Shown: piece by piece, positions 8,906 through 28,525 of the stretch
How positions within the stretch are numbered: the first letter of the stretch is position 1
How the letters are laid out: each line of letters opens with the position of its first letter
From: a virus
Lineage: Duplodnaviria; Heunggongvirae; Uroviricota; Caudoviricetes
Direction: 5' to 3' (one strand)
Virus record (IMG/VR): IMGVR_UViG_2737471863_000001
Length of the DNA stretch: 33,695 nucleotides
Translations under genes and position numbers: made by a program
The notes under the pieces: generated by a model
What the model saw: the letters and a program-made list of their open reading frames with translations, nothing else
Database searches by the model: none
Told to the model about the DNA's origin: nothing

Positions 8906-9966
8906 GTGGCCACCGCCTTTGTTTTCTTCGTCTTCGCTTTCATTTCCGGCATGTCCAGTGATTCTGGCGGAACCAGCGCCAGAACCGTCATCCGTCCCTG
9001 TGCGCCATCCGTCCAGGTCACCCCGGATATCAGCCAGGTGGTTTTCAGGTTCTGAATGCTGTCGTCGATATCGACAAGGCGGTTGGTCTGCCACAACGGG
9101 CCGCTGTCGCCCTGTTCGCGCCAGCCTGCCACCGTGATTTCCGTCGTGCGGGATTCCCCCAGCATCCGGGCTTTGTACCATTCCCCGCGAATGCTGGCCC
9201 CGCCCACGGTCAGGCTGTCTTCATTGACCAGAATGCGCGGGCGGTAACGGTTAATTTCCGGGTCTTCGGTGATGTACTGGCGACCGCCCACCATCGAGGC
9301 AGGCTGGCTGTCCCACAGTTTGCCACCGGCACTGGTGGTACCCTTGATGATGTACTGGCTGTTACGCTCCCGCCAGCTGAAGCGCCCACGGGCTGCGAGG
9401 ATATTTTTCCCCAGCACCAGTGACACACCCGCGCGAATGGAAGAGGCGCGGGTGATAATCAGGTTACCCGCCCCGTCAGACGTCAGCAGAACGCCGCGCT
9501 GTTTTGCCAGCCGGTCGAGCAGTTCAAAACCCGTTTCACCCTGTTCCAGAACGACGGACGCAAACGCCTCCCCGGTCGGGGTTTCCGTGATGACGGTTAT
9601 CCCGAACGGGCGGCAGACATCAGCCGCCACCTGTTCAAGCCGCACACCTTTCCATTTCCCGGACGAATGCACCACAGAGCAGTCAACCAGGTCGCCGGTT
9701 TTGTCGCGCCCCATGACGCGAATCTCCACGTTATCTGCGTCATAGCTGGGGATAAAATCATCGATATACCCCGTCAGCACGGTATCCGCGCCCAGCCTGA
9801 CCGTGCAGGGTTGCCCCTCACGAATTACGCGCGGTGCCGCTGCCGACCAGCGGGTTGTCACACTGAGATCAAACTCACCGGCAATCGCCTTCAGGGAACG
9901 ACTGACGGACATTTCCGTCCAGCCTTCCCACAGCTTGCCGTTAACGGTAAGAACAACAGATTCCAT
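8896..9966 (-). CDS. baseplate hub / tail protein (Mu Q/gp44-like, P2 gpD-like)
   Basis: 356 aa, ATG 9966 overlapping the P stop codon by one base. Confidence 0.7.
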   Translation of the reverse strand: MESVVLTVNGKLWEGWTEMSVSRSLKAIAGEFDLSVTTRWSAAAPRVIREGQPCTVRLGADTVLTGYIDDFIPSYDADNVEIRVMGRDKTGDLVDCSVVHSSGKWKGVRLEQVAADVCRPFGITVITETPTGEAFASVVLEQGETGFELLDRLAKQRGVLLTSDGAGNLIITRASSIRAGVSLVLGKNILAARGRFSWRERNSQYIIKGTTSAGGKLWDSQPASMVGGRQYITEDPEINRYRPRILVNEDSLTVGGASIRGEWYKARMLGESRTTEITVAGWREQGDSGPLWQTNRLVDIDDSIQNLKTTWLISGVTWTDGAQGRMTVLALVPPESLDMPEMKAKTKKTKAVATWD

Positions 9967-17493: not shown

Positions 17494-18399
17494 TTATGCC
17501 GGGGTGGTGATGTACGGGCTGTCCACGATCTCCACATCCTTGTACCAGATGTTGGAATCGCCGCCGTTAACCAGCATGGCGTCAATAATGCGCTTCGCAG
17601 CCGCGCGGTTTTTCGGCCCCACCACAAGAGTGGTCGGGCGGATGCCCAGCGGCTCACCGTTGGTGCCCTTCATGCCCCGCAGCAACTCATTGGCTTTTTT
17701 GTAGTTCTCCACCGTCAGTGCTGCACGGGAACCGACGGCGGTCTGCCAGAAGCCGAAGCCCGCATTACAGCGACCGTCCACCCCGTACAGGAACTCGTGG
17801 TTCTTGAAGGTGTGCTCGCTGTTCAGATCGTCCAGGGCTTCAAATTTAAAGGCGCGTCGCGTCTGCCAGATGATGGGTTTCAGCACCTGCGACTCATCAA
17901 TCAGAAACCACGGTTCGCCCTGGTCCGTTCCTGGTGTACCGACAACGTTGCTGTAGGTGCCATCACCCAGCGGGTGGTCTTCATCAAAGAAGTTCTGGCC
18001 GTCAAAGCACAAAGTTTTGAATCCGGCACACAGCAGGGCGTAACACAGCTTGTCCGGGAACACGGCTGTCATACGTCCATAGCGTTCAGCAGTAATGCTG
18101 TACTGACCAATCTGGTCATCTTCAATGTGTTCGCGCTTAACGCGAATGGAACTTTCCCAGAGTTTGTTGGTGATGGTGTAACCATAACCGTCCAGCGTTG
18201 CCAGCTGACGCTCACCGACCCATTCTTTGATGTCCGGTAAATCTTTCATCCAGCCGTAGGTGTTGGAGGCTGACGAACTCGGCACCTCAGAAGCAATGCG
18301 ATTCCACTGCGGTTCGACACCACTCAGTCCACGGGTAAAGGCGGCGCTCAGGCAGGTGGTCAGTGCATGAAGGATTTCAGAACTGACAGTCTGTCCCAT
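17494..18399 (-). CDS. major capsid protein (Mu T-like)
   Basis: 301 aa, ATG 18399 overlapping the I stop (TAATG); position after protease/scaffold. Confidence 0.85.
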   Translation of the reverse strand: MGQTVSSEILHALTTCLSAAFTRGLSGVEPQWNRIASEVPSSSASNTYGWMKDLPDIKEWVGERQLATLDGYGYTITNKLWESSIRVKREHIEDDQIGQYSITAERYGRMTAVFPDKLCYALLCAGFKTLCFDGQNFFDEDHPLGDGTYSNVVGTPGTDQGEPWFLIDESQVLKPIIWQTRRAFKFEALDDLNSEHTFKNHEFLYGVDGRCNAGFGFWQTAVGSRAALTVENYKKANELLRGMKGTNGEPLGIRPTTLVVGPKNRAAAKRIIDAMLVNGGDSNIWYKDVEIVDSPYITTPA

Positions 18400-19361
18400 T
18401 AGTTGTTCTCCTGTTTTGGTTTAGCGGCGAGGAACTCTTCCCCGGTAATACCCATGCTGCGACACATCGCCAGTTCGGCGTCGGTCAGTGTCTGCGCGGG
18501 TTTATCCTTGCCCTGGCTGGGCTTGTCGTTGTTCACCAGCGGCTGTGTGCCTTTGGTGTATTCCGCAAACTGTTTGCGGCCTTCTTCCGTGCGGCAGGTG
18601 GCAAGGAACATGTCACGGTTTGCCGGGGCCACTTTTCCGGCTTCGATGGCCGCATCCACAAGCGCCCCGGCTTCCTTCTCTTCCAGTTGCTGAAGGCGTT
18701 TTTCTGCGGTTTCGGCACGGTTCAGTGCCAGATTGTGGGTTTCCACCGGCACAAACTTCGTCAGATCAGGTGTCTGTGCGCGGTTCAGCGCCACCTGTTC
18801 GTTCTCCTGAAGTTGTTTAATGGCAGCCACGGTATCGTCCACCGTAGCGGATTCAGCCAGCCCAAGCAGGCCGGTGATTTGCACAGGTACTGTCATCGGG
18901 TTTTTCTCCGTATTCAGTGCAGGAAAATCCAGGTTAGGTTTGTTGGTCAGCCCGACGCTGGACAGGCGCGTCACCACACCCTCCGCGTCATAGAAAAACG
19001 CCGGGCTGTAATAGCGGTAGCGACGCTCACTCAGCATCCAGCGGGCGTACTCGCTCCAGACAACACGGCCTTCAATGGTGCCGCCATCCGTCACCCGCAG
19101 TTCTTCCACCCAGCCATACGCCGGGGCTTCATCACCGCGTTGCCCTTTAATTTCGGTGGCATGTTCAATGTCCACCGGAATTTTGATGTCGGACGAACGG
19201 GCGATCACCTCATGCGGATTGCGGTTAATCCACGTCCGTCCATCGCGCCCGGTGAACTCACCCGCAGGGACGAGCTCAAGCCATTCCGGCAGTTGAGCAG
19301 GTGTCAGCTCAGGGATGGGTTCTGGCAGGGAAAAACACAGCGCCAGCAGTTCCGGTTGCAT
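18399..19361 (-). CDS. head maturation protease / scaffold protein (Mu I-like)
   Basis: 320 aa, ATG 19361; Glu/Ala-rich coiled-coil C-terminal half typical of scaffold. Confidence 0.75.
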   Translation of the reverse strand: MQPELLALCFSLPEPIPELTPAQLPEWLELVPAGEFTGRDGRTWINRNPHEVIARSSDIKIPVDIEHATEIKGQRGDEAPAYGWVEELRVTDGGTIEGRVVWSEYARWMLSERRYRYYSPAFFYDAEGVVTRLSSVGLTNKPNLDFPALNTEKNPMTVPVQITGLLGLAESATVDDTVAAIKQLQENEQVALNRAQTPDLTKFVPVETHNLALNRAETAEKRLQQLEEKEAGALVDAAIEAGKVAPANRDMFLATCRTEEGRKQFAEYTKGTQPLVNNDKPSQGKDKPAQTLTDAELAMCRSMGITGEEFLAAKPKQENN

Positions 19362-19410
19362 GTCAGTCTCCGTCGTTTGGGGTTACCGACGGTCAGTATG
19401 CGGAAGGCAG

Positions 19411-19436
19411 AAAAAAAGCCGGATTTACCGGCTTCA
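19411..19436 (-). terminator. rho-independent terminator (second of two after F)
   Basis: Minus strand reads AAGCCGG-TAAAT-CCGGCTT followed by TTTTTTT; identical to the copy at 27131-27156. Confidence 0.5.
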
Positions 19437-19523
19437 CTGAAAACAGGGAAATACCCCCTTCAAAACCCCTTCAAAAACGCCACAGCACCTTCAAAAAAGT
19501 CAGAATGCACATTCACGCCATCA

Positions 19524-19551
19524 GAATAAAAAACGCATTTCTGATGCGTTT
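19524..19551 (-). terminator. rho-independent terminator 24 nt after the F stop
   Basis: Stem aaacgcat / atgcgttt (19531-19538, 19544-19551), 5-nt loop, followed on the minus strand by UUUUUUAU. Confidence 0.45.
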
Positions 19552-19574
19552 CAGGGGGATTTACGGCGGGAGGG

Positions 19575-20339
19575 TTACTCACTGTCAAAACGGGCCTGTT
19601 TTGTCGCCAGCTGGCGCGCCAGCTCCTGCTCACGGTTTATGCCGGGATTGTAGTTCCAGCCCGGATCAATCCCTTCCGGTACATCTTCCTCTTCGCCCGT
19701 GCGTTTGTTCACCCAGCGGACAGTCCGGATTTCCGGCGCTTCGGTCTGAATGGTGCCCTGTGCCGCCAGTTGCGCATACTCACCACGGCTGACCTGACGG
19801 ATGGTGCATTTGCAGCCCCAGCCGTTAGGGGCAAAATGCGTCTGCCAGAACGGATGATCTACCGGCAGACACAGACGCGCCCATTTCACATGCTCCGCCC
19901 GGTGCTCGCGGGATGGCCCCAGCTCATAAATCAGATACGGCATGGCCCGCTTTGTCCGCTGAATGCGTTCCCACTGGCCCGCCGCGCGGGCGGTGCGCAT
20001 GTTGGTGTCAAAAATCGTGCGGAGGCGGCGGTCGCTGCCCAACTGTACGGTGCGCCTTTCACCCGTCAGCGGATCATCCATCTCCTGAACGCCCCACCAT
20101 CCGCGCTTTATCAGCAGCGGTTGCAGCGCCTCCCGGAACTCGCTGAACGTCTGCCCGCTTTGCAGGGCGTCTTCCACAAGGGCTTTCACATCCGACAACA
20201 AATCCAGTTGCAGCATTTTTGCCACGGTGAAGCTGTTCCGGTGCTCTTCCCGCCACACATCCCGGTAATCAAAACCGGGGCGCAGCTTCTTCGCCTTCAG
20301 CCACGCCAGCGCCTCTTTCGGGATGAGGGTTTCACGCAT
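19575..20339 (-). CDS. head morphogenesis protein (Mu F-like)
   Basis: Start taken at ATG 20339 (GGGGGA SD), overlapping the portal stop by 8 nt; track ORF opens at TTG 20396. Confidence 0.7.
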   Translation of the reverse strand: MRETLIPKEALAWLKAKKLRPGFDYRDVWREEHRNSFTVAKMLQLDLLSDVKALVEDALQSGQTFSEFREALQPLLIKRGWWGVQEMDDPLTGERRTVQLGSDRRLRTIFDTNMRTARAAGQWERIQRTKRAMPYLIYELGPSREHRAEHVKWARLCLPVDHPFWQTHFAPNGWGCKCTIRQVSRGEYAQLAAQGTIQTEAPEIRTVRWVNKRTGEEEDVPEGIDPGWNYNPGINREQELARQLATKQARFDSE

Positions 20340-21903
20340 GGCCGGTGTCCCCCAGCGCACGCGCCTTAAAGCACACCTCCGCCAGTTGCAGGGCAAAGTC
20401 GTCCGCGTTCAGCGTTTCCTGAAGCTCAGGCAGGCGTTTCAGAAAGTCATCAAAACTGTCGCATTCCTGCGCCAGTGTCAGCACCGGGTTCGTGAACGCT
20501 TCGCCGGTTTTCTGCCAGTCACGCAGGGCATCATCCACCATCTGTGCCAGTTCGTCGGGGTGTTCCCGGTTCAGGGCGACGCGCTCGCGGTTCATCGCCA
20601 CATCACCTGACATTCCGGCAGACACCGGATGCAGAACATCAGCCCCGTCGTCCGGTTCAGCCAGGCCGAACCGGTCCCGCAGCTCCGATTCCTGAACCCG
20701 CATCCCCCGGTCAATCAGCGGCACCAGAGCATCTGTCAGCGCCTTCAGATCTTCCGCTTCACTGATACGCAGAACAACACGAGGATAGTGCGCCTGTGGC
20801 CCGTAGTTGGCCTCGATGTAGGGACGCACCAGATATTCATTCAGCGTGTTAGCCAGTTGCCGTGCATCCCAGCGCACAATGTCCATGCGCACCTGATTGT
20901 GCACGTCCGCCTGTGAACGCGAACTGCCGTTATCCGTGGTCATGGTCTGCCCCAGCACAGCCTTACTGATTTGCGCATCACACCATTCCGCCATTTCACG
21001 GAACAGTGCGCCGCCGTTATTCCGGCTGGCGGTTTCCTTCATCTCCAGTTGCATGGACTGCGGAATGGCACACCCGGCATCCGAGGCAATGGAGGCAATC
21101 GCATCAATCAGCACGCGGATTTGCTCCTCCGTGGCGTTGGGACCGTATTTCCCCACCGTGACCGGAATGCCAAATTTTTCCGCGAATGCCCACCAGTCGC
21201 GCACGGTAAAGGATTTCAGCATGTACATCACCGCCACCAGACGGGCCAGACCGTTACGCAACGGCAGACCGGATTTCAGGCGAGGCTGGTGAACAATGAA
21301 TTTTCCCGGTGTCAGCAGTACGCCATCCACCGGTTCGTCATCCGTCAGCAGGCGGAACTGGCGCAGCGTGGGCTTTTCGGCTTTCAGAAAACGGGGATCA
21401 ACCCACTCATAATCACGGGGCATCCAGTGGTTGTTGCGGGTGTCCCACAGGATTTCACAGACCGCCACGCCTTTTCCCAGCCCGTCGAGCAAATCAAACA
21501 TCAGTTCGGGGATTTGCGGGGCTTCCATCAGTGCACGGATGGCGTCCGCCAGTTGCACGTCAGCATCGTCATCACTGGCGGCCACCACCACCGGTTCGAT
21601 ACCCGCCACCGTCAGCTTGCGGGTGCGCAGCACCGAGGCGTAATGCAAATCGCGTTCTTCCATCTCTTCGGCAAGGATAAAAAAATCACGTGTGATGCCG
21701 TCGGCGGCATTGCGCAGAATGCCTGCCAGCCTGCCGGGGTTCAGCCCGGAGGCGATGCTGATGCCCGGCGAGGCCGAACGCACGCCAGCCTGACGCGGAC
21801 GGGCCTGTGCTTCGTTGAGCGCCTCTTTTTTCAGCGTGTCTTCCTCACCGGTTGCCGGGTTCAGCAGACGGCGAACGGCCCCGGCCAGTTGTTTCAGGTT
21901 CAC
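20332..21903 (-). CDS. portal protein (Mu H/gp29-like)
   Basis: 523 aa; starts at GTG 21903 with GAGGGAGG SD, overlapping the terminase stop (GTGA); no in-frame ATG nearby. Confidence 0.85.
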   Translation of the reverse strand: MNLKQLAGAVRRLLNPATGEEDTLKKEALNEAQARPRQAGVRSASPGISIASGLNPGRLAGILRNAADGITRDFFILAEEMEERDLHYASVLRTRKLTVAGIEPVVVAASDDDADVQLADAIRALMEAPQIPELMFDLLDGLGKGVAVCEILWDTRNNHWMPRDYEWVDPRFLKAEKPTLRQFRLLTDDEPVDGVLLTPGKFIVHQPRLKSGLPLRNGLARLVAVMYMLKSFTVRDWWAFAEKFGIPVTVGKYGPNATEEQIRVLIDAIASIASDAGCAIPQSMQLEMKETASRNNGGALFREMAEWCDAQISKAVLGQTMTTDNGSSRSQADVHNQVRMDIVRWDARQLANTLNEYLVRPYIEANYGPQAHYPRVVLRISEAEDLKALTDALVPLIDRGMRVQESELRDRFGLAEPDDGADVLHPVSAGMSGDVAMNRERVALNREHPDELAQMVDDALRDWQKTGEAFTNPVLTLAQECDSFDDFLKRLPELQETLNADDFALQLAEVCFKARALGDTGHA

Positions 21904-23435
21904 AGTAAACCTCCCTCATTTTTCAGGCCGCGTGTCAGCTTCATCTGGCGGCGCGCGTTGCGTTCTTCCGGTTTCGCCGGGCGGTTCAGGCGGTGCAGCT
22001 CGTAACGGTGGCAGTCATCCTTGCTGGCAAGGAACCCCAGGAAAATGGCCACAGCGGCGTCGCCGTGACGCTTGCGGCCATCGCTGCCTTTAGTACGGGT
22101 ATCGTCAATGCCGGGAACGCCACGCAGTAACTGAATGGCCCCGAGGTCATTGATCACGTCTTCATGCTTCGGAAGGATCAGCTCATCATCTTCAAATGCT
22201 GCACGGAAACGGGGCATGTTTTCGCGGTAGAACGCCACGGACAGCATCACCTGTTCCACTTCGTCGCCGTACCGCTCCGCCGCCTGTTCTGCCAGATACT
22301 GACCATTCCCCCGCGCATCCATTTTGATACCGTCACGACGGGGTAGACGATCGCAAATCCAGAACAGCACCTGCTCCTGCTGTTTAAACGGCACATTGCC
22401 AAGCTCAACCAGGAACGGCACCTCGCGGGTGGTGTCATCGTTCACCGTCACCGGGGCCAGTACGGTCAGGTCACCCGAACGCGCAAAGTCTTCCCCCAGA
22501 CAGTGGCGCAGGTTCTTCGGGAGTTTTTCCAGCTCGGGGCGCACCACTGTTTCCAGCCATTCCCGGATATCTGCCCGGCGCTGGCTTTCCGTCAGTGCGT
22601 TAAATTCCGGTGTGCCGGTAAAGCGCAGCACTTTTCCGGTGCCACGGGCCGCACGTTCACGCAGTGAGCGGGGAATATACGTGCCGCCGCCGTTTTTCGG
22701 GACGCAGTAATATTCCTCCAGTGCGTCTTCGCGGGTGGCGGTATTTCGCAGCAGGCCTTCTTTCCATTCCGCCTCGGCTTCCGGTGACCACACCATGCCG
22801 CGCACCTGACAGATACGCCGGTACAGCCCGTCATTGCAGGCGTCATCCAGCGTGATGGTGTGAATGCTGTAATCTTTTTTGCCCGCACGGCTTTCCTGAA
22901 TCAGCTGGTTAAACAGGTTGTCCACGCCGTCATGGGTGGAAATAAGGCGAATTTTGCCGCCCCATGTTTTCAGCGGCAGCACGGCCTTCAGCAGTTCGTC
23001 CAGTTTTTCATGGAATGCGGCTTCGTCGATGGTGACATTCCCCTGCATCCCGCGAATGTTGCTCGGGTTGCTGGACAGTGCCTTGACCTTAAAACCGCTG
23101 GCGAAGTACACGACGAACGTCAGAATGTCCTTGTCTTCGTCGGTGATCACTTCCTCGCAGATTTCTTCCGCTGCCGCATTAAACGCTTTCGCCCACATCG
23201 CCACGGCGTCGATAAATTCGCGGGCCATCTCCTTATTCGAACCGATATAAAAGTGATCGCGCCCGCCGTCTTCCTTCTTCAGCGATGCCGTCAGTGCCGC
23301 ATCTGCCGCCTCCGCCCAGGTTAAACCGGTACGGCGGGATTTCTCGGCGATTTTCAGGTCGGCATCATCCGCCACCCAGCGTTTCTGATACGGCAGCAGA
23401 ACATCATATTCACTGAACGTGTCCATTTGTGTCAT
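21900..23435 (-). CDS. terminase large subunit (Mu E/gp28-like)
   Basis: 511 aa, ATG 23435 overlapping the upstream stop (ATGA); size and position typical. Confidence 0.85.
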   Translation of the reverse strand: MTQMDTFSEYDVLLPYQKRWVADDADLKIAEKSRRTGLTWAEAADAALTASLKKEDGGRDHFYIGSNKEMAREFIDAVAMWAKAFNAAAEEICEEVITDEDKDILTFVVYFASGFKVKALSSNPSNIRGMQGNVTIDEAAFHEKLDELLKAVLPLKTWGGKIRLISTHDGVDNLFNQLIQESRAGKKDYSIHTITLDDACNDGLYRRICQVRGMVWSPEAEAEWKEGLLRNTATREDALEEYYCVPKNGGGTYIPRSLRERAARGTGKVLRFTGTPEFNALTESQRRADIREWLETVVRPELEKLPKNLRHCLGEDFARSGDLTVLAPVTVNDDTTREVPFLVELGNVPFKQQEQVLFWICDRLPRRDGIKMDARGNGQYLAEQAAERYGDEVEQVMLSVAFYRENMPRFRAAFEDDELILPKHEDVINDLGAIQLLRGVPGIDDTRTKGSDGRKRHGDAAVAIFLGFLASKDDCHRYELHRLNRPAKPEERNARRQMKLTRGLKNEGGLL

Positions 23436-24013
23436 GCGCTAATCCCCAGAATTTCACGTTTGATGGTGTCAGCCGCACCGCCTGACAGACCGCCCGTTCT
23501 GACCAGTTCTTCGGTTTTCTCTGCCATCTCCTGCGCAAACGCATCGCGGATCGCTTTCTCGCGTTTATGGCTGGTCATGGCTGCCGCTTCCAGACGCTGG
23601 GCAACCAGCGCCAGTTGCCCCAGCGCTTTCGGTGCAACTGGCTTGTCGTCTTCTGCCATCGACATGGACGTTTCAAAGGCCAGCGTTTTTACAAACTCCA
23701 TCAGCAGCTTGCCGACGTCAGACGTCGGTGCAGAACCCAGCTTTGCCGCCCAGACTTCGGCCATTTCGCGGGAGGCGCGGATTTTGGCCCCGACTTTTTC
23801 CATGCGGATGGCATAGCGGTTTAAGCCCGTCCGGCTTAACTGCATCTCTTCCGGCAGGTTATGTTCGTCAATCAGGGCGTTGATGGCTTCGCGGATTTCT
23901 TCCTGCGTGTGCCGCTTTTCCCGCAGCATCTGATGCAACTGCTCCCGGATGCTGTCCGGGAGTAAATCCACTTTGGAAAGACGGCCACGGGTGGGGCGTT
24001 GTTCATTTTCCAT
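23432..24013 (-). CDS. Mu gp27/D-like protein (putative terminase small subunit)
   Basis: Track ORF opens at GTG 24034; the first ATG at 24013 has a strong AGGAGG SD 7 nt upstream, giving 193 aa. Confidence 0.55.
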   Translation of the reverse strand: MENEQRPTRGRLSKVDLLPDSIREQLHQMLREKRHTQEEIREAINALIDEHNLPEEMQLSRTGLNRYAIRMEKVGAKIRASREMAEVWAAKLGSAPTSDVGKLLMEFVKTLAFETSMSMAEDDKPVAPKALGQLALVAQRLEAAAMTSHKREKAIRDAFAQEMAEKTEELVRTGGLSGGAADTIKREILGISA

Positions 24014-24150
24014 GTGTGCCCTCCTGTTGCTCACTACGCTGTAAACTTTCGTATGCAGATTTCAGTGCGCCGCTCTGGATTTCCCGCCATGTCAGGTTGT
24101 GCGCCAGACGGCGGAGTTCATCACGGGACGCTTTACTTATCGGATTCTTT

Positions 24151-24450
24151 TTACGGTTCACGACGGCCCCCGTCTTCAGTTCCCGGTGTTTTCAGACCGG
24201 CGTATATTTCTTCGCGAACGGAGCGGATATCCTTACCCAGCAGCTTCCACAGCCGCGCACATGCCGGTGATGAACGCAGGGCACGTTTCATGGGGGTATC
24301 CGGTGCATCCGGGTTCCAGGGCTTTCCGGTCTGTTGTTCGTATGCACAGGCAATGGCCTTTTGCTCAATATCTGCCAGCACAAGGCAGTACGCCAGCTGC
24401 CGCACGACGGCCCGTTCTCCGCGACTTAACGGCTTCAGTTTTCGGGCCAT
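24151..24450 (-). CDS. hypothetical protein (lysis-head junction)
   Basis: 99 aa, ATG 24450 with GAGGGA SD; no family recognised. Confidence 0.4.
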   Translation of the reverse strand: MARKLKPLSRGERAVVRQLAYCLVLADIEQKAIACAYEQQTGKPWNPDAPDTPMKRALRSSPACARLWKLLGKDIRSVREEIYAGLKTPGTEDGGRREP

Positions 24451-24452
24451 GC

Positions 24453-24746
24453 TCAGTCCCTCGCACGGGGTTTTTTAACGCCCGGAACGCTGGACTGGCC
24501 GTTTGCCACATCCTCGCCGCTGCCGGTGATTTCAGCCACGTAACAGCCGCCCACATCAGACAGACGAACCAGCCCCTGCTCGCGAAGCCATGCAAGCTGG
24601 GTGCGCACCACATCACGGGATACCTTATGACCGTAAGCCTGAAGGCAGGTCTGCAACACGGATTCATTCGCGCTGTCGCCACAGTCCAGCAGGGAACGCA
24701 GCAACACCAGACGACGGTCTTCAGTGAGGATCTCTTTCATCGCCAT
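24453..24746 (-). CDS. hypothetical protein, possible winged-helix fold
   Basis: 97 aa, ATG 24746 overlapping the upstream stop (TAATG). Confidence 0.4.
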   Translation of the reverse strand: MAMKEILTEDRRLVLLRSLLDCGDSANESVLQTCLQAYGHKVSRDVVRTQLAWLREQGLVRLSDVGGCYVAEITGSGEDVANGQSSVPGVKKPRARD

Positions 24747-25051
24747 TAATTTTTTTCCTTTAACTCGTTCTCTAATAACAAATCACTGATGCGGGATACC
24801 TGGCGGATGGATGGCCCCAGCTCTTTGATTTCTCCCCGCAGGTTGCTGATATCCAGTTGCAGACGGTGGAACTCATCACGATCAGGTAGCTGATGTACCT
24901 GGCTTTCCATCACCGACACGCGGGAACGCAACAAATCAAACTCTTCGCGTTTGACGTACGTCTTCGCCAGAATCAACTGAAGCAGGTTTATTGCTGTCAT
25001 TAACAGCGCCCACAGAATGGGCCAGTTGGCTCTAATCATTTCCCAGGACAC
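24746..25051 (-). CDS. membrane-anchored coiled-coil protein, lysis accessory (spanin/releasin-like)
   Basis: Hydrophobic N-terminus WPILWALLMTAINLLQLILA then a charged helical region; start GTG 25051 (AGGAGG SD) or ATG 25039 (ATGA coupling). Confidence 0.45.
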   Translation of the reverse strand: MSWEMIRANWPILWALLMTAINLLQLILAKTYVKREEFDLLRSRVSVMESQVHQLPDRDEFHRLQLDISNLRGEIKELGPSIRQVSRISDLLLENELKEKN

Positions 25052-25263
25052 GTCTTCCTCCTGCGTTCCCGCATCTGCTGACAGTCAATACAGGTCACCA
25101 CATCCGGCAGCGCCGCAAGGCGCTGTACCGGAATAACGTTCCCGCAGTCATTGCAGAAGCCCCGACTGTGGGGCGCTTCTTTTGTCCGTATCTGCCAGGC
25201 TTTAACGACGCTCTGACGCTCGTTCAGAACCACTTCACTGATGCGGTCGATTTCGTCGGTCAT
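25036..25263 (-). CDS. TraR/DksA-family C4 zinc-finger protein
   Basis: 75 aa, ATG 25263 (ATGA overlap); CNDCGNVIP...VTCIDCQQ spacing matches the TraR/DksA zinc finger. Confidence 0.6.
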   Translation of the reverse strand: MTDEIDRISEVVLNERQSVVKAWQIRTKEAPHSRGFCNDCGNVIPVQRLAALPDVVTCIDCQQMRERRRKTCPGK

Positions 25264-25868
25264 TTCGGCCCCGCAGATATTTTGTGACGGCTTGATTTGC
25301 TGTAACGGGCAAAGCCGTCAAGGGTTCGCACGCCGAGATAGCCCAGCGCAGGGGTAAGCAACATCAGCGTGATATCCCAGTCCGGTGATGGCATATGCAG
25401 CGTGATACCTCTGGCACCGGCAATGGCTCCGGCAATCTGGCCGCAGGAAAGCAACAGCACATAGGCAAGACTGCTGTAACAGGACAGGCGGGCCAGCAAC
25501 GGGCGCGTCTGGCGCACATAGCTGTCCGTGGCGTTGTCACCATTGCGGATGGTTTCCTGCTGTTCGTGGTGTGCGGCCTGCTGATCAGCCAGCACCAGCT
25601 TCTGCCGTTCCACCTCCAGTTGTTGCAACTGAATTTTCAGGGTTTCCAGCTGCATCAGTTGCTCCGGTGACAGCATCACCAGTTTTTGTTCCAGAATGCG
25701 TTGCTGTTCAGCCACCGGCAGGCTTTCCCGGACACTTTCCACCATACCGGCCACCGAGTCAGCGGCGGCAGATGTGCTGCCACCAAACCAGCGCCCGACG
25801 GAACGAATCAGCCCCGGCCCGGCTTTCAGCAGAACAGAGGCGATGCCTGAAAGGGTTAACGGATCCAT
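25260..25868 (-). CDS. membrane protein with central coiled-coil and C-terminal hydrophobic segments (holin/lysis candidate)
   Basis: 202 aa, ATG 25868 with AGGGGGA SD; Gln/Leu-rich helix, then hydrophobic LAYVLLLSCGQIAGAIAGA and ITLMLLTPALGYLGV. Confidence 0.4.
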   Translation of the reverse strand: MDPLTLSGIASVLLKAGPGLIRSVGRWFGGSTSAAADSVAGMVESVRESLPVAEQQRILEQKLVMLSPEQLMQLETLKIQLQQLEVERQKLVLADQQAAHHEQQETIRNGDNATDSYVRQTRPLLARLSCYSSLAYVLLLSCGQIAGAIAGARGITLHMPSPDWDITLMLLTPALGYLGVRTLDGFARYSKSSRHKISAGPK

Positions 25869-26266
25869 GAATCCCCCTTATGAAAACGGCGCTGATGTTT
25901 ATAAAGTGCCGCGCAAAAAATACCGCCCAGCCAGAACGCCAGCTGATAAGGCTCCTTCAGATAAAGAATGCCGAATGTCAGCATGAAAAAACCAACGGCC
26001 CAGACCACCCATGACCACACGACAATTCGAAGGGAAGCGGCCCGGAAACGCCTTTTGGGTTGCAGGCGATAAGGTACGTTGCCCAGCTGGAAACTGTGAA
26101 TCAGACAGAGTGTCGCGCCGTATGCCAGCACCATGACCGCAAACGCCCGCCATCCGGCAAAACAGCTCGCCAGAAAAAGGACTGCCGACAGCCCCAGAAA
26201 CGACCACTGGCACAACATAAAGCGGGAGCAAATAACGCGAACAAAAAGACTATTCATTCTGTGCAT
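25856..26266 (-). CDS. small membrane protein with about four predicted TM helices (holin candidate)
   Basis: Start taken at internal ATG 26266 (AAGGAAA SD), about 136 aa; the 5' part of the track ORF overlaps the preceding gene and lacks an SD. Confidence 0.4.
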   Translation of the reverse strand: MHRMNSLFVRVICSRFMLCQWSFLGLSAVLFLASCFAGWRAFAVMVLAYGATLCLIHSFQLGNVPYRLQPKRRFRAASLRIVVWSWVVWAVGFFMLTFGILYLKEPYQLAFWLGGIFCAALYKHQRRFHKGDSWIR

Positions 26267-26477
26267 TGAGTTTTTCCTTGTACTTCTGGCACTGCCAGAA
26301 AATGTCCCGTGTATCCACGGCGTTCCAGCCACGCATGTAGTAGCTGGCGTGTGTGCCGTCATGGCCGGTATAGTCCAGCGGTTTCGGGGGCGGACCTCCG
26401 GCCATGCGGTGCAGAACCTCCTGACGCAGGCGGTCACGCCGCCCGGCTTTCAGTGAGGCATCCCAGCCTTTGCCCAT
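26250..26477 (-). CDS. hypothetical 75-aa protein directly after the endolysin
   Basis: ATG 26477 two nt after the lys stop, with GGGGGTGA SD; soluble, no family recognised. Confidence 0.35.
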   Translation of the reverse strand: MGKGWDASLKAGRRDRLRQEVLHRMAGGPPPKPLDYTGHDGTHASYYMRGWNAVDTRDIFWQCQKYKEKLNAQNE

Positions 26478-26478
26478 A

Positions 26479-27075
26479 TCACCCCCGCGTGGCGGACATG
26501 ATGCCCAGAGGGGTATCGATGATTTCCAGACAGGCGTCGGTCAGCTTTTCCATGCGGTTAAACCAGCCGTTCAGGTATTTGCCCTGGGCGGGTTTTGATT
26601 TGATGATGTCGGCATAAAAGCGGGAGCGACGGACAATACAGCGGGCCAGCAGCCAGTCAGGGGTGGACTGGCTCACGGCCTTGCGGGTACGCGGCCCGAT
26701 GATGCCGTCAGCATCCACATCAGCGGCTTCCTGCAAAAGTTTGATAGCCTTTTTAACGCCATGCTGAACCGCCGCATCAAACACAAAAAGCGCCACGCCA
26801 TCAGGCCACTGGTCACATCCGGCAGGCAGCCAGTAATCACGCAGGTAAATCTGTGCGGCCTGTTCGCGGGTTAAATCTTTGATGCGGGTATCCGGTTTAC
26901 CGTCACCGTTGACATCGGTTTTGCCGTCAATCACACCGTCGCGGCGGTCAGAAATGCCGTATTTGGTTTCGCCGCCACGGTCAGTGGAGTCATTGACATA
27001 GACGCCTTCGATATCGGGACGCAGAATGAAATTCAGCGCATGCTCAAAGGCCGGGGAGAATTTTTGATTTTCCAT
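26479..27075 (-). CDS. endolysin: GH108-type lysozyme domain with C-terminal peptidoglycan-binding domain, no N-terminal SAR/TM segment
   Basis: 198 aa, ATG 27075; hallmark IEGVYVNDSTDRGGETKYGIS of the GH108 family; no hydrophobic N-terminus. Confidence 0.8.
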   Translation of the reverse strand: MENQKFSPAFEHALNFILRPDIEGVYVNDSTDRGGETKYGISDRRDGVIDGKTDVNGDGKPDTRIKDLTREQAAQIYLRDYWLPAGCDQWPDGVALFVFDAAVQHGVKKAIKLLQEAADVDADGIIGPRTRKAVSQSTPDWLLARCIVRRSRFYADIIKSKPAQGKYLNGWFNRMEKLTDACLEIIDTPLGIMSATRG

Positions 27076-27130
27076 AAAAACACCTGTGAAGCAGAGTTAA
27101 ACGTGGTCTGCTTCATGGTGCCGGAGGCAT

Positions 27131-27156
27131 AAAAAAAGCCGGATTTACCGGCTTCA
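27131..27156 (-). terminator. rho-independent terminator between the Mor/C gene and lys
   Basis: Same 26-nt element as 19411-19436; begins 5 nt after the Mor/C stop (27161). Confidence 0.55.
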
Positions 27157-27160
27157 TTGA

Positions 27161-27610
27161 TTAAGGGCGTCGTGGCGGACGACGAACGGGGTGAGGCAGG
27201 TTCGGGGAGGGGTAAAACAAATCCGGCTGGTATTTATTGCGCTCCAGACGTCGCATCCGTTTGATGGCCTTGTAGACGGTTTTATACGTCACTCCGTAAC
27301 GCTGAACCAGTTCAGGAATATTATGGCCGTTAAAATCACGCCAGATACGCATATCCCGGACAAGATTCTCCAGAATATTCCCCCTCGGAACATAAACCTG
27401 CATCCCGCCGATATGGCGACAAATCGCCACAACCAGCTCAAGGGAATGAGCAGGGTCTGCGCCAATCCGGGCCAGCTCTTTACGCAGCAGTGCGTTCAGT
27501 TCAGAAAGTAACGCCGGATAAGCGGTGTTTTCCTGGTAATCATGAAGATATTCCAGAACGCTGTCGTCCCGGAGGTCTTCGAATAAATCCTGCTCTTTCA
27601 TCTGTTTCAT
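27161..27610 (-). CDS. Mor/C-family transcription activator (cannot say whether Mor or C orthologue)
   Basis: 149 aa, ATG 27610 overlapping the gemA stop (ATGA); N-terminal acidic region and C-terminal HTH VYKAIKRMRRLE; sits between gemA and lys. Confidence 0.7.
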   Translation of the reverse strand: MKQMKEQDLFEDLRDDSVLEYLHDYQENTAYPALLSELNALLRKELARIGADPAHSLELVVAICRHIGGMQVYVPRGNILENLVRDMRIWRDFNGHNIPELVQRYGVTYKTVYKAIKRMRRLERNKYQPDLFYPSPNLPHPVRRPPRRP

Positions 27611-28158
27611 ACAGCAATTCTCCCGCTGTTTCGTGCGCGGGCATACGCACTGGTCAGTGCATCATAGCCGCGCAGTTCCCGCCCGGATGGGCTTACAGGT
27701 AAAGGCACACCATGTCGGGCAAAGGCTTCACGGATGCAGCGCATGTGCCACTGTTTGAGCGTTTCGAGCACAACCTGCAACGATTCCCCGTGACACCATG
27801 CCAGCGTGGAAACACCCTGACCGCCATTACGTCTGGCCGTCAGGCGTTCAACGTATTTGTCCAGCGCGGCGTCGCTGATATCGGATACGAAACCATCAAG
27901 AAACATCTGCTGCCAGATTTTATAAATCTTCTCGCGCGGTGTGACATGCCCCTTAAAGCGACGGCGGGGATGTTTATTCTGCTTTTTAAAACCGCGCTCT
28001 TTCATGGCATCGAGCACTTGTTCCAGTTGTGCAACGGACAGCTCGCGGCAACTGGTTTTGCCCGTGCACTGCACCAGAAAGGCGCGGTAAGTGTCATCGT
28101 CGAGGTGCAACTCCCGGCGGGCAACATGAATTAATTTAATCAGGGATGTGCGACTCAT
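27607..28158 (-). CDS. gemA: GemA-like protein (Mu gp16 family)
   Basis: Start taken at ATG 28158 (AAGGAGA SD), 183 aa; N-terminus MSRTSLIKLIHVARRELHLDDDTYRAF is characteristic of the gp16/GemA family. Confidence 0.6.
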   Translation of the reverse strand: MSRTSLIKLIHVARRELHLDDDTYRAFLVQCTGKTSCRELSVAQLEQVLDAMKERGFKKQNKHPRRRFKGHVTPREKIYKIWQQMFLDGFVSDISDAALDKYVERLTARRNGGQGVSTLAWCHGESLQVVLETLKQWHMRCIREAFARHGVPLPVSPSGRELRGYDALTSAYARARNSGRIAV

Positions 28159-28525
28159 TTTGCCCCATCTCCTTAATGCAGTGTTTTTCGACCCATGCCA
28201 CACGAGCAGAATTCAGGTGGCATCTGTCATGCAGGCATTCATCATGGTAGTGCACGTTATCTACATTAAATGGCAGGGATTCATCCAGCCCACTCGCGAC
28301 AAAATCCGCATGTAATTGTTCTAGCGCAGCCTCGCTGTCTGCTCCGATTGATTCAAAATAGTCATAAACATTGGCGCATAATCCGACTCCCCGAATAAAC
28401 CCTTCCCCTTCCGTTTCTTGCGCTCCGTTTTTTAACCACTGGTTATAGGCGACATAAAAATCATAAAGATGTTTTCTGGTGCTGGCGGATGCGGATTTAA
28501 TTTCATTTTTCTCTGCGTTATTCAT
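28136..28525 (-). CDS. hypothetical early-region protein
   Basis: 129 aa, ATG 28525; acidic, Cys/His-containing C-terminus; no family recognised. Confidence 0.4.
   Translation of the reverse strand: MNNAEKNEIKSASASTRKHLYDFYVAYNQWLKNGAQETEGEGFIRGVGLCANVYDYFESIGADSEAALEQLHADFVASGLDESLPFNVDNVHYHDECLHDRCHLNSARVAWVEKHCIKEMGQNESHIPD

Follow-up and report, generated by a model that had tools for sequence, protein, structure and literature searches.

An identical 26-nt hairpin element as the probable core of two Mor-dependent late promoters in a Mu-like Escherichia coli prophage

The window, by which we mean the whole 33,695-nt stretch of DNA analysed here, is a Mu-like Escherichia coli prophage carried by about 49 out of 5426 complete genomes of this species. 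All of its genes lie on the minus strand. Their identities were taken from Pfam and PHROG scans, and those that bear on the present argument are collected in Table 1 together with the features predicted between them. An identical element of 26 nt lies once after the Mor-family gene (copy A) and once between F and protease I (copy B), and the gene context obtained from the two scans agrees with the original prediction, which had placed it after a Mor/C gene and between F and I. The operon that we predict to be driven from copy A also contains, at 25036-25263 on the minus strand, a gene for a DksA/TraR-like zinc-finger protein.

Table 1. Genes and predicted features of the prophage that are discussed in the text, in the direction of transcription
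Feature	Position	Strand	Remarks
GemA	27607-28203	-	
Mor-family activator	27161-27610	-	Pfam Mor 3.6e-30; PHROG 'late transcriptional activator'
Copy A of the 26-mer	27131-27156	-	Pm-type promoter of the lysis/packaging operon, probably its part from about -49 to -24
Predicted -10 hexamer CACCAT, copy A	27115-27120	-	dyad spacing as for TATCCT (-13..-8) of Mu Pm
Two-tier stem-loop	27079-27122	-	5' half over the -10 region and the predicted start; 3' half over the endolysin Shine-Dalgarno sequence (AGGUG)
GH108 endolysin	26479-27075	-	first gene of the operon predicted to be served by copy A
Small ORFs, small terminase, large terminase, portal	after endolysin, before Mu-F	-	
Mu-F	19575-20396	-	
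Terminator-like hairpin GAAACGCATCAGAAATGCGTTTTTTATT	19530-19552	-	directly after F; scan and folding
Three phased TTTTGAAGG repeats	19455-19500	-	upstream of copy B
Copy B of the 26-mer	19411-19436	-	probable promoter core ahead of protease/scaffold I and the major head protein T
Predicted -10 hexamer CATACT, copy B	19395-19400	-	predicted start near 19387
Hairpin CCGUCG...CGACGG	19370-19392	-	5' arm ends at the predicted start; 3' arm adjoins the ribosome-binding site of I (GGAG)
Mu-like protease/scaffold I	18399-19361	-	first gene predicted to be served by copy B
Capsid T, then tail and baseplate genes	after protease I	-	
Candidate degenerate Mor box AGGGAAAACGGTAAATCT	8493-8537, centre 8524	-	PWM; TATTAT 26-31 nt downstream

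The element reads AAAAAAAGCCGGATTTACCGGCTTCA on the plus strand and TGAAGCCGGTAAATCCGGCTTTTTTT on the gene strand, and both copies are exact at the coordinates originally given for them; no further copy with up to 3 mismatches exists in the window, where none is expected by chance, and none of 100 dinucleotide-preserving shuffles contained a match. Copy A begins 4 nt past the Mor stop codon and lies 55 nt ahead of the endolysin start codon, and copy B lies 49 nt from the start codon of I. The minus-strand hairpin with a U-tract that had been read from the letters is recovered both by a consensus terminator scan and by folding: each copy combines a stem of 8 pairs (5 G-C and 3 A-U) with a 5-nt loop and a run of seven T (U7 in the RNA), and the predicted folding energies are -13.9 kcal/mol (z -2.9) for copy A and -12.8 kcal/mol (z -2.5) for copy B. 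Both therefore have the GC-rich stem-loop followed by a U-tract on the transcribed strand that characterises generic Rho-independent terminators, and in copy A this hairpin stands at the end of the early (Mor) operon. In DNA terms copy A consists of the 3' part of a Mor box, a GCCGG-TAAAT-CCGGC dyad and a T7 tract. The similarity between the copies extends, more weakly, 3' of the 26-mer on the minus strand, with ATGCCTCCGGCACCAT for copy A and CTGCCTTCCGCATACT for copy B.

The same arrangement is found in phage Mu itself. Directly after mor, Mu carries TAAAGCCGGTTAATCCGGCTTTTTTTAC, which in AF083977.1 falls inside the feature 'middle promoter, activated by Mor' (9163-9233), and this Pm feature also holds a TransTermHP-predicted terminator at 9179-9200, so that the Mu record, too, has a terminator prediction for the combination of hairpin and T-run. 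Copy A is orthologous to Mu 9176-9203. From -48 to -24 of Mu Pm, a stretch that comprises most of the Mor box, the GC segment and the T-tract, both copies agree with Mu in 24 of 25 letters; of the 16 positions of the Mor box AGTAAAGCCGGTTAAT, copy A shares 13 and copy B 14. The hexamers CACCAT and CATACT lie at offsets 25-30 from the dyad centre, as TATCCT does in Mu, and this spacing is kept in 52 distinct sequences from the copy-A site (site 1) and 36 distinct sequences from the copy-B site (site 2) of related loci. Both hexamers are weak, agreeing with the -10 consensus at 3 of 6 (CACCAT) and 4 of 6 (CATACT) positions, and a consensus scan of the minus strand upstream of lys or I found no sigma-70 consensus promoter. 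Our Mu numbering uses the one register that fits both the KMnO4-reactive positions and the -57G/-54A mutations (PMC4287176, PMC4390567). In these sources the bottom-strand T residues of Mu Pm that react with KMnO4 are at -12, -4, -1, +1, +3 and +4; published Mu Pm has a Mor dyad at -51..-36, a Mor footprint at -56..-33 and no -35 element, and a preprint describes Mor as bound in the form of a tetramer.

The activator encoded in the window is likewise close to that of Mu. The window Mor shares 63% identity with Mu Mor, as against 32% with Mu C, and its recognition helix TVYKAIKRMRR is near-identical to that of Mu Mor. [quoted passage not shown] The C-terminus of the window Mor (...YQPDLFYPSPNLPHPVRRPPRRP) carries QPDLF, the clamp-binding motif reported for MuC, at the place where Mu Mor has QPSLL, and the protein further bears a proline/arginine-rich tail that is missing from Mu Mor.

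The likeness to Mu Pm thus covers the position directly after mor, the weak -10 hexamer at equal spacing without a -35 element, the related activator and the embedded hairpin, whereas the use made of the element differs. Mu has one copy, which drives a middle operon that ends with C; the window has two exact copies and a candidate third, which stand directly ahead of late operons (lysis/packaging, and head protease/capsid), and it has no C gene. A further difference is the loop, TAAAT in the window and TTAAT in Mu, of which both variants occur among relatives.

In their map positions the copies resemble another set of Mu promoters, the C-dependent Plys, PI, PP and Pmom, which precede lys and I or lie in the baseplate region and in which, too, an activator dyad takes the place of the -35 element and the -10 is weak. 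The Mu promoters before lys and I are C-dependent, and on account of the positions ahead of lys and I a C-type promoter was considered for the window as well; it was rejected, since the recognition sequence in the window is Mor-type rather than the C-type TTAT-N5-6-ATAA (PMC12867686), and the activator is a Mor orthologue, a homologue of C being absent from the window. The parallel with Mu PI reaches further upstream, for PI is also preceded by a gyrase site and a predicted terminator. The repeats at 19455-19500 are positional homologues of the right arm in the strong gyrase site of Mu: relatives show TTAAACG/TTGAACG in three copies, with TGTGGTACGATG ahead of them, and Mu has TTAAAACG..TTTAAACCG..TTTAACGG just right of the annotated gyrase cut site (17879/80). 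They are likely to be the counterpart of that site.

Because a close sequenced phage is absent at the DNA level (megablast against phage records gave no match for the F-I region, and for the Mor region matched Mu and D108 in gemA only), conservation was studied in loci found by a protein-seeded scan, which yielded 60 viral contigs (L001-L060) with a Mor 61-100% identical to that of the window. The original prediction had named the presence of the element at both sites in related phages as a check, and the element is indeed there. Site 1, at the early/lysis boundary before the lysis genes, is occupied in all 58 loci that are long enough, sometimes with one additional small gene between Mor and the element, and site 2, before protease I, was found in 49 loci. 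At site 1 all 58 copies retain the complete hairpin (-12.1 kcal/mol) together with 6 or more T in 8. At site 2 the element is terminator-like in 26 of 49 loci; in 16 of the 49 the 8-nt tail contains no more than 4 T, and the right arm of the hairpin is missing from many (for example GGAAAGCGGTTAATCCACTTTCTTCTCC), yet all 49 keep the left arm and loop, that is the Mor-box half GGAA(A/G)(G/C)CGGT(A/T)AAT, and all keep an ACACTG/ATACTG hexamer at a fixed distance from it. Exact 26-mers stand at both sites even in loci whose Mor is about 68-71% identical (L024, L034, L044).

Information content is highest across the 26-mer and falls away steeply on either side of it. Each site nevertheless has flanks of its own, CAATG...ATGCCTG at site 1 and CAGTG...GCCTTCC.CATACT at site 2, which are conserved across lineages with a Mor only 65-70% identical, and sites 1 and 2 are therefore old paralogues held by purifying selection. 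The exact identity of the copies had been ascribed to duplication or to strong constraint. Constraint is what the relatives support, with a 26-mer that is invariant across related loci while its surroundings have diverged; recent copying is contradicted by flanks that are specific to each site and conserved between lineages. Nor does termination account for the identity, given that site 2 so often loses the right arm and the T-run and retains the Mor-box half and the hexamer. The identity is best read as reflecting recognition by one activator.

Taken together, the computed identity to Mu Pm, the geometry, the pattern of conservation and the single activator argue that a promoter of the Mu Pm type, dependent on an activator, has its conserved core in the 26-mer, a reading to which we give a probability of about 80%. 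The pair is then best seen as two Mor-dependent late promoters, positional analogues of Mu Plys and PI, for which Mor binding, start sites and termination are here inferred by homology. Mor produced from the early operon would bind the Mor box A(A/G)TGA-AGCCGG-TAAAT (-51..-36 in Mu), made up of the bases just 5' of the dyad, its left arm and the loop. The G+C segment (CCGGC) and the rigid T7 tract would form a spacer that replaces the -35 element, and host sigma-70 RNA polymerase would be drawn to the weak -10 hexamer 25-30 nt past the dyad centre. In Mu Pm, activation is known to distort the junction at which the G+C segment meets the T-tract. Transcription on the minus strand would start near 27107 for lysis, the small and large terminase, portal and F, near the position listed for copy B in Table 1 (19387) for protease I, capsid T and the genes downstream, and perhaps near 8485 for the baseplate genes. 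As the window has no C gene, Mor would be the direct late activator, in a cascade of two steps as against the three of Mu, and the identity of the copies would follow from the need for both to be read by a single protein together with RNA polymerase. The comparative data further suggest a Mor dyad centre about 5.5 bp downstream of the literature centre (-43.5), with the exact contacts uncertain.

How far the element also terminates transcription has to be weighed separately for the two copies. Transcription that enters it from upstream would yield the GC hairpin and U7. Copy A, which follows the last early gene so closely, is invariant in 58 of 58 relatives and contains a 22-mer that recurs at terminator-like positions in unrelated phyla, probably does terminate the early operon, although the T-tract at site 1 could instead owe its strict conservation to the promoter role known for this tract in Mu. 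The early terminator of Mu is known as t9.2. For copy B a terminator role would be redundant, at most a back-up, since the hairpin at 19530-19552 is likely to be the main terminator of the lys-F operon. The original suggestion that the elements mark operon boundaries of the lys and I transcription units accordingly stands as far as their association with lys and I goes, but not in the sense of ends only: they would mark activator-dependent starts at least equally.

That both copies are plain Rho-independent terminators, closing the Mor and lys-F operons and identical through recent copying, would explain the hairpin and U7 flagged by the scan, the stable folding, the TransTermHP prediction for the Mu homologue and the occurrence of a 22-mer from the element at terminator-like positions in unrelated genomes. 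A terminator has no need of a fixed sequence, however, and here the sequence is conserved besides the structure, unchanged where Mor is only 65-70% identical, with one site at which relatives tolerate the loss of U-tract and right arm and hold on to the left half and the -10 hexamer. A separate terminator-like hairpin already lies 3' of F, the site-specific flanks speak against recent copying, and the head genes would go unexpressed if all that stood 49 nt before I were a terminator, there being no sigma-70 consensus promoter upstream of I. We consider this explanation improbable. It is still harder to see the hairpins as leader terminators that stand downstream of more distant promoters and are governed by antitermination, as with lambda Q. 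Both do lie in 5' leaders near the first late genes, and there is conserved sequence upstream of copy B; that conserved block, however, is the counterpart of the Mu strong gyrase site, no sigma-70 promoter-like site was found upstream on the minus strand, and copy A, 4 nt from the Mor stop codon, leaves no room for a promoter. The homologous element in Mu is, moreover, a proven activator-dependent promoter, and no antiterminator-like family was found among the proteins scanned in a scan that was not exhaustive. We regard antitermination control as very unlikely.

The least credible of the alternatives, in our view, is that the 26-mer belongs to a dispersed host or mobile repeat (REP/MITE-like), or is a chance repeat, and has nothing to do with phage regulation. 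Such a view could appeal to the 22-mer core in many unrelated genomes and to an 88% match in 731 E. coli chromosomes. Matches of at least 95% in E. coli, by contrast, are confined to 52 records, apparently those of the prophage carriers, with two places per record among the E. coli records listed; Enterobacterales genomes with Mor have the element beside homologues of Mor/Lys or F/I, the non-phage occurrences share no flanks, and chance would produce no repeat in a window of this size. Rather than many copies at variable loci, what was found are fixed positions on the phage map across related loci. The wider occurrences are observations in their own right. The 22-mer AAGCCGGTWAATCCGGCTTTTT is found about 70 times, against about 0.5 expected by chance, among unrelated phyla, Bacteroidota and Spirochaetota included, and in chromosomes of Pantoea, without a Mor gene close by (L098-L188). 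It typically follows an A-run and often comes right after a stop codon, and it looks like a generic bidirectional terminator hairpin that has been reused convergently. The 33-nt match of 88% identity in 731 E. coli records lies at an unannotated site (for example NC_004431.1 198977-199009) and is probably an unrelated host terminator.

A third site may lie in the baseplate region. A PWM of the Mor-box half gave one additional strong match on the gene strand, with a score of 20.2 compared with a shuffle maximum of 14.1. The candidate falls within a coding region, about 150 nt upstream of a baseplate-wedge gene (7920-8372), and in this it is like Mu PP, an internal promoter in the baseplate region. 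Comparison was made with close relatives and the isolated Klebsiella phage Kp4866-3, nearly all other baseplate-wedge relatives being very distant: the site is kept in the close relatives, and Kp4866-3, which has all three sites at equal positions, keeps it (27161 in L064) with a diverged spacer. Its conservation could also stem from constraint on the encoded protein (GKTVN...IIGK).

The leaders downstream of the promoters have a further feature in common. At both sites and at Mu Pm a helix can be drawn whose 5' strand lies at about -22..+1 and whose 3' strand covers the ribosome-binding site and the AUG. In Mu (AF083977.1 9206-9250), CCUGUGAUGA at -10..-1 pairs with UCAUCAUGGG over the E18 AUG, and the known +1 comes directly after the 5' arm. 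RNAalifold on a MAFFT alignment of site-1 leaders, which is not structure-aware, gave no structure; alignment-free tests were used instead, comparing duplex energies of cognate and non-cognate strands and tabulating pair types by fixed offset. In 32 distinct site-1 leaders the 5' arm keeps to fixed offsets, and several kinds of pair occur at each position (for offset 35, AT 13, CG 9, TA 6 and GT 3), and the mean duplex energy is -15.7 kcal/mol for cognate and -10.9 kcal/mol for non-cognate strands, with a median z of -3.4 against shuffles. Site-2 leaders behave similarly, the pattern being present in most of them. In the window the outer stem is weak (z -1.9), and an Rfam scan of 19000-27700 returned only sroD (E=0.16), far below the gathering score and taken as chance. 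Loci L049-L051 carry, about 45 nt past site 1, an inverted second Mor-box-like palindrome, ACCGGATTAACCGGTTT, in a 5' UTR leader hairpin.

The stem-loop at 27079-27122 could form in read-through RNA only, where its 5' strand would pair over the Shine-Dalgarno sequence or AUG and block translation of the first gene; transcripts started by Mor would be without that strand and would be translated. It is possible, though somewhat doubtful, that each Mor promoter is insulated in three layers, with the U-tract hairpin terminating transcripts, the DNA recruiting Mor and polymerase, and the helix silencing the translation of what leaks through; for the window the idea depends on the predicted start sites. 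To our knowledge such a fold-back helix has not been described before at Mu Pm. Fold-back inhibition of read-through transcripts is known from IS10/IS50, where likewise the ribosome-binding site is sequestered in a helix that takes its 5' strand from sequence ahead of the start proper to the element, so that only external transcripts are silenced. The difference is that lysis and head genes would here be protected from early-operon read-through, as judged from covariation and a predicted start. If true, fold-back adds a mechanism by which the lysis genes are kept silent until Mor acts.

The element is best taken as a recognisable relative of the well-studied Mu Pm promoter with its embedded hairpin, and not as a new kind of signal; judging from its sequence and position, it serves here as a late promoter in two places or more. 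What had seemed odd, a pair of identical "terminators", thereby yields a map of the regulon in a widespread group of Mu-like prophages whose hosts include E. coli, Klebsiella, Raoultella, Serratia, Brenneria and other Enterobacterales. The 58 site-1 and 49 site-2 copies amount to a natural mutational series for Mor recognition, in which invariant and tolerant positions can be told apart, and this natural variation hints at a functional dyad centre a few bp off the textbook assignment. The element itself is a compact part that would unite a terminator and an inducible promoter in one. In this group one Mor apparently fires two or three late operons directly, a scheme simpler than the early-middle-late order of Mu.
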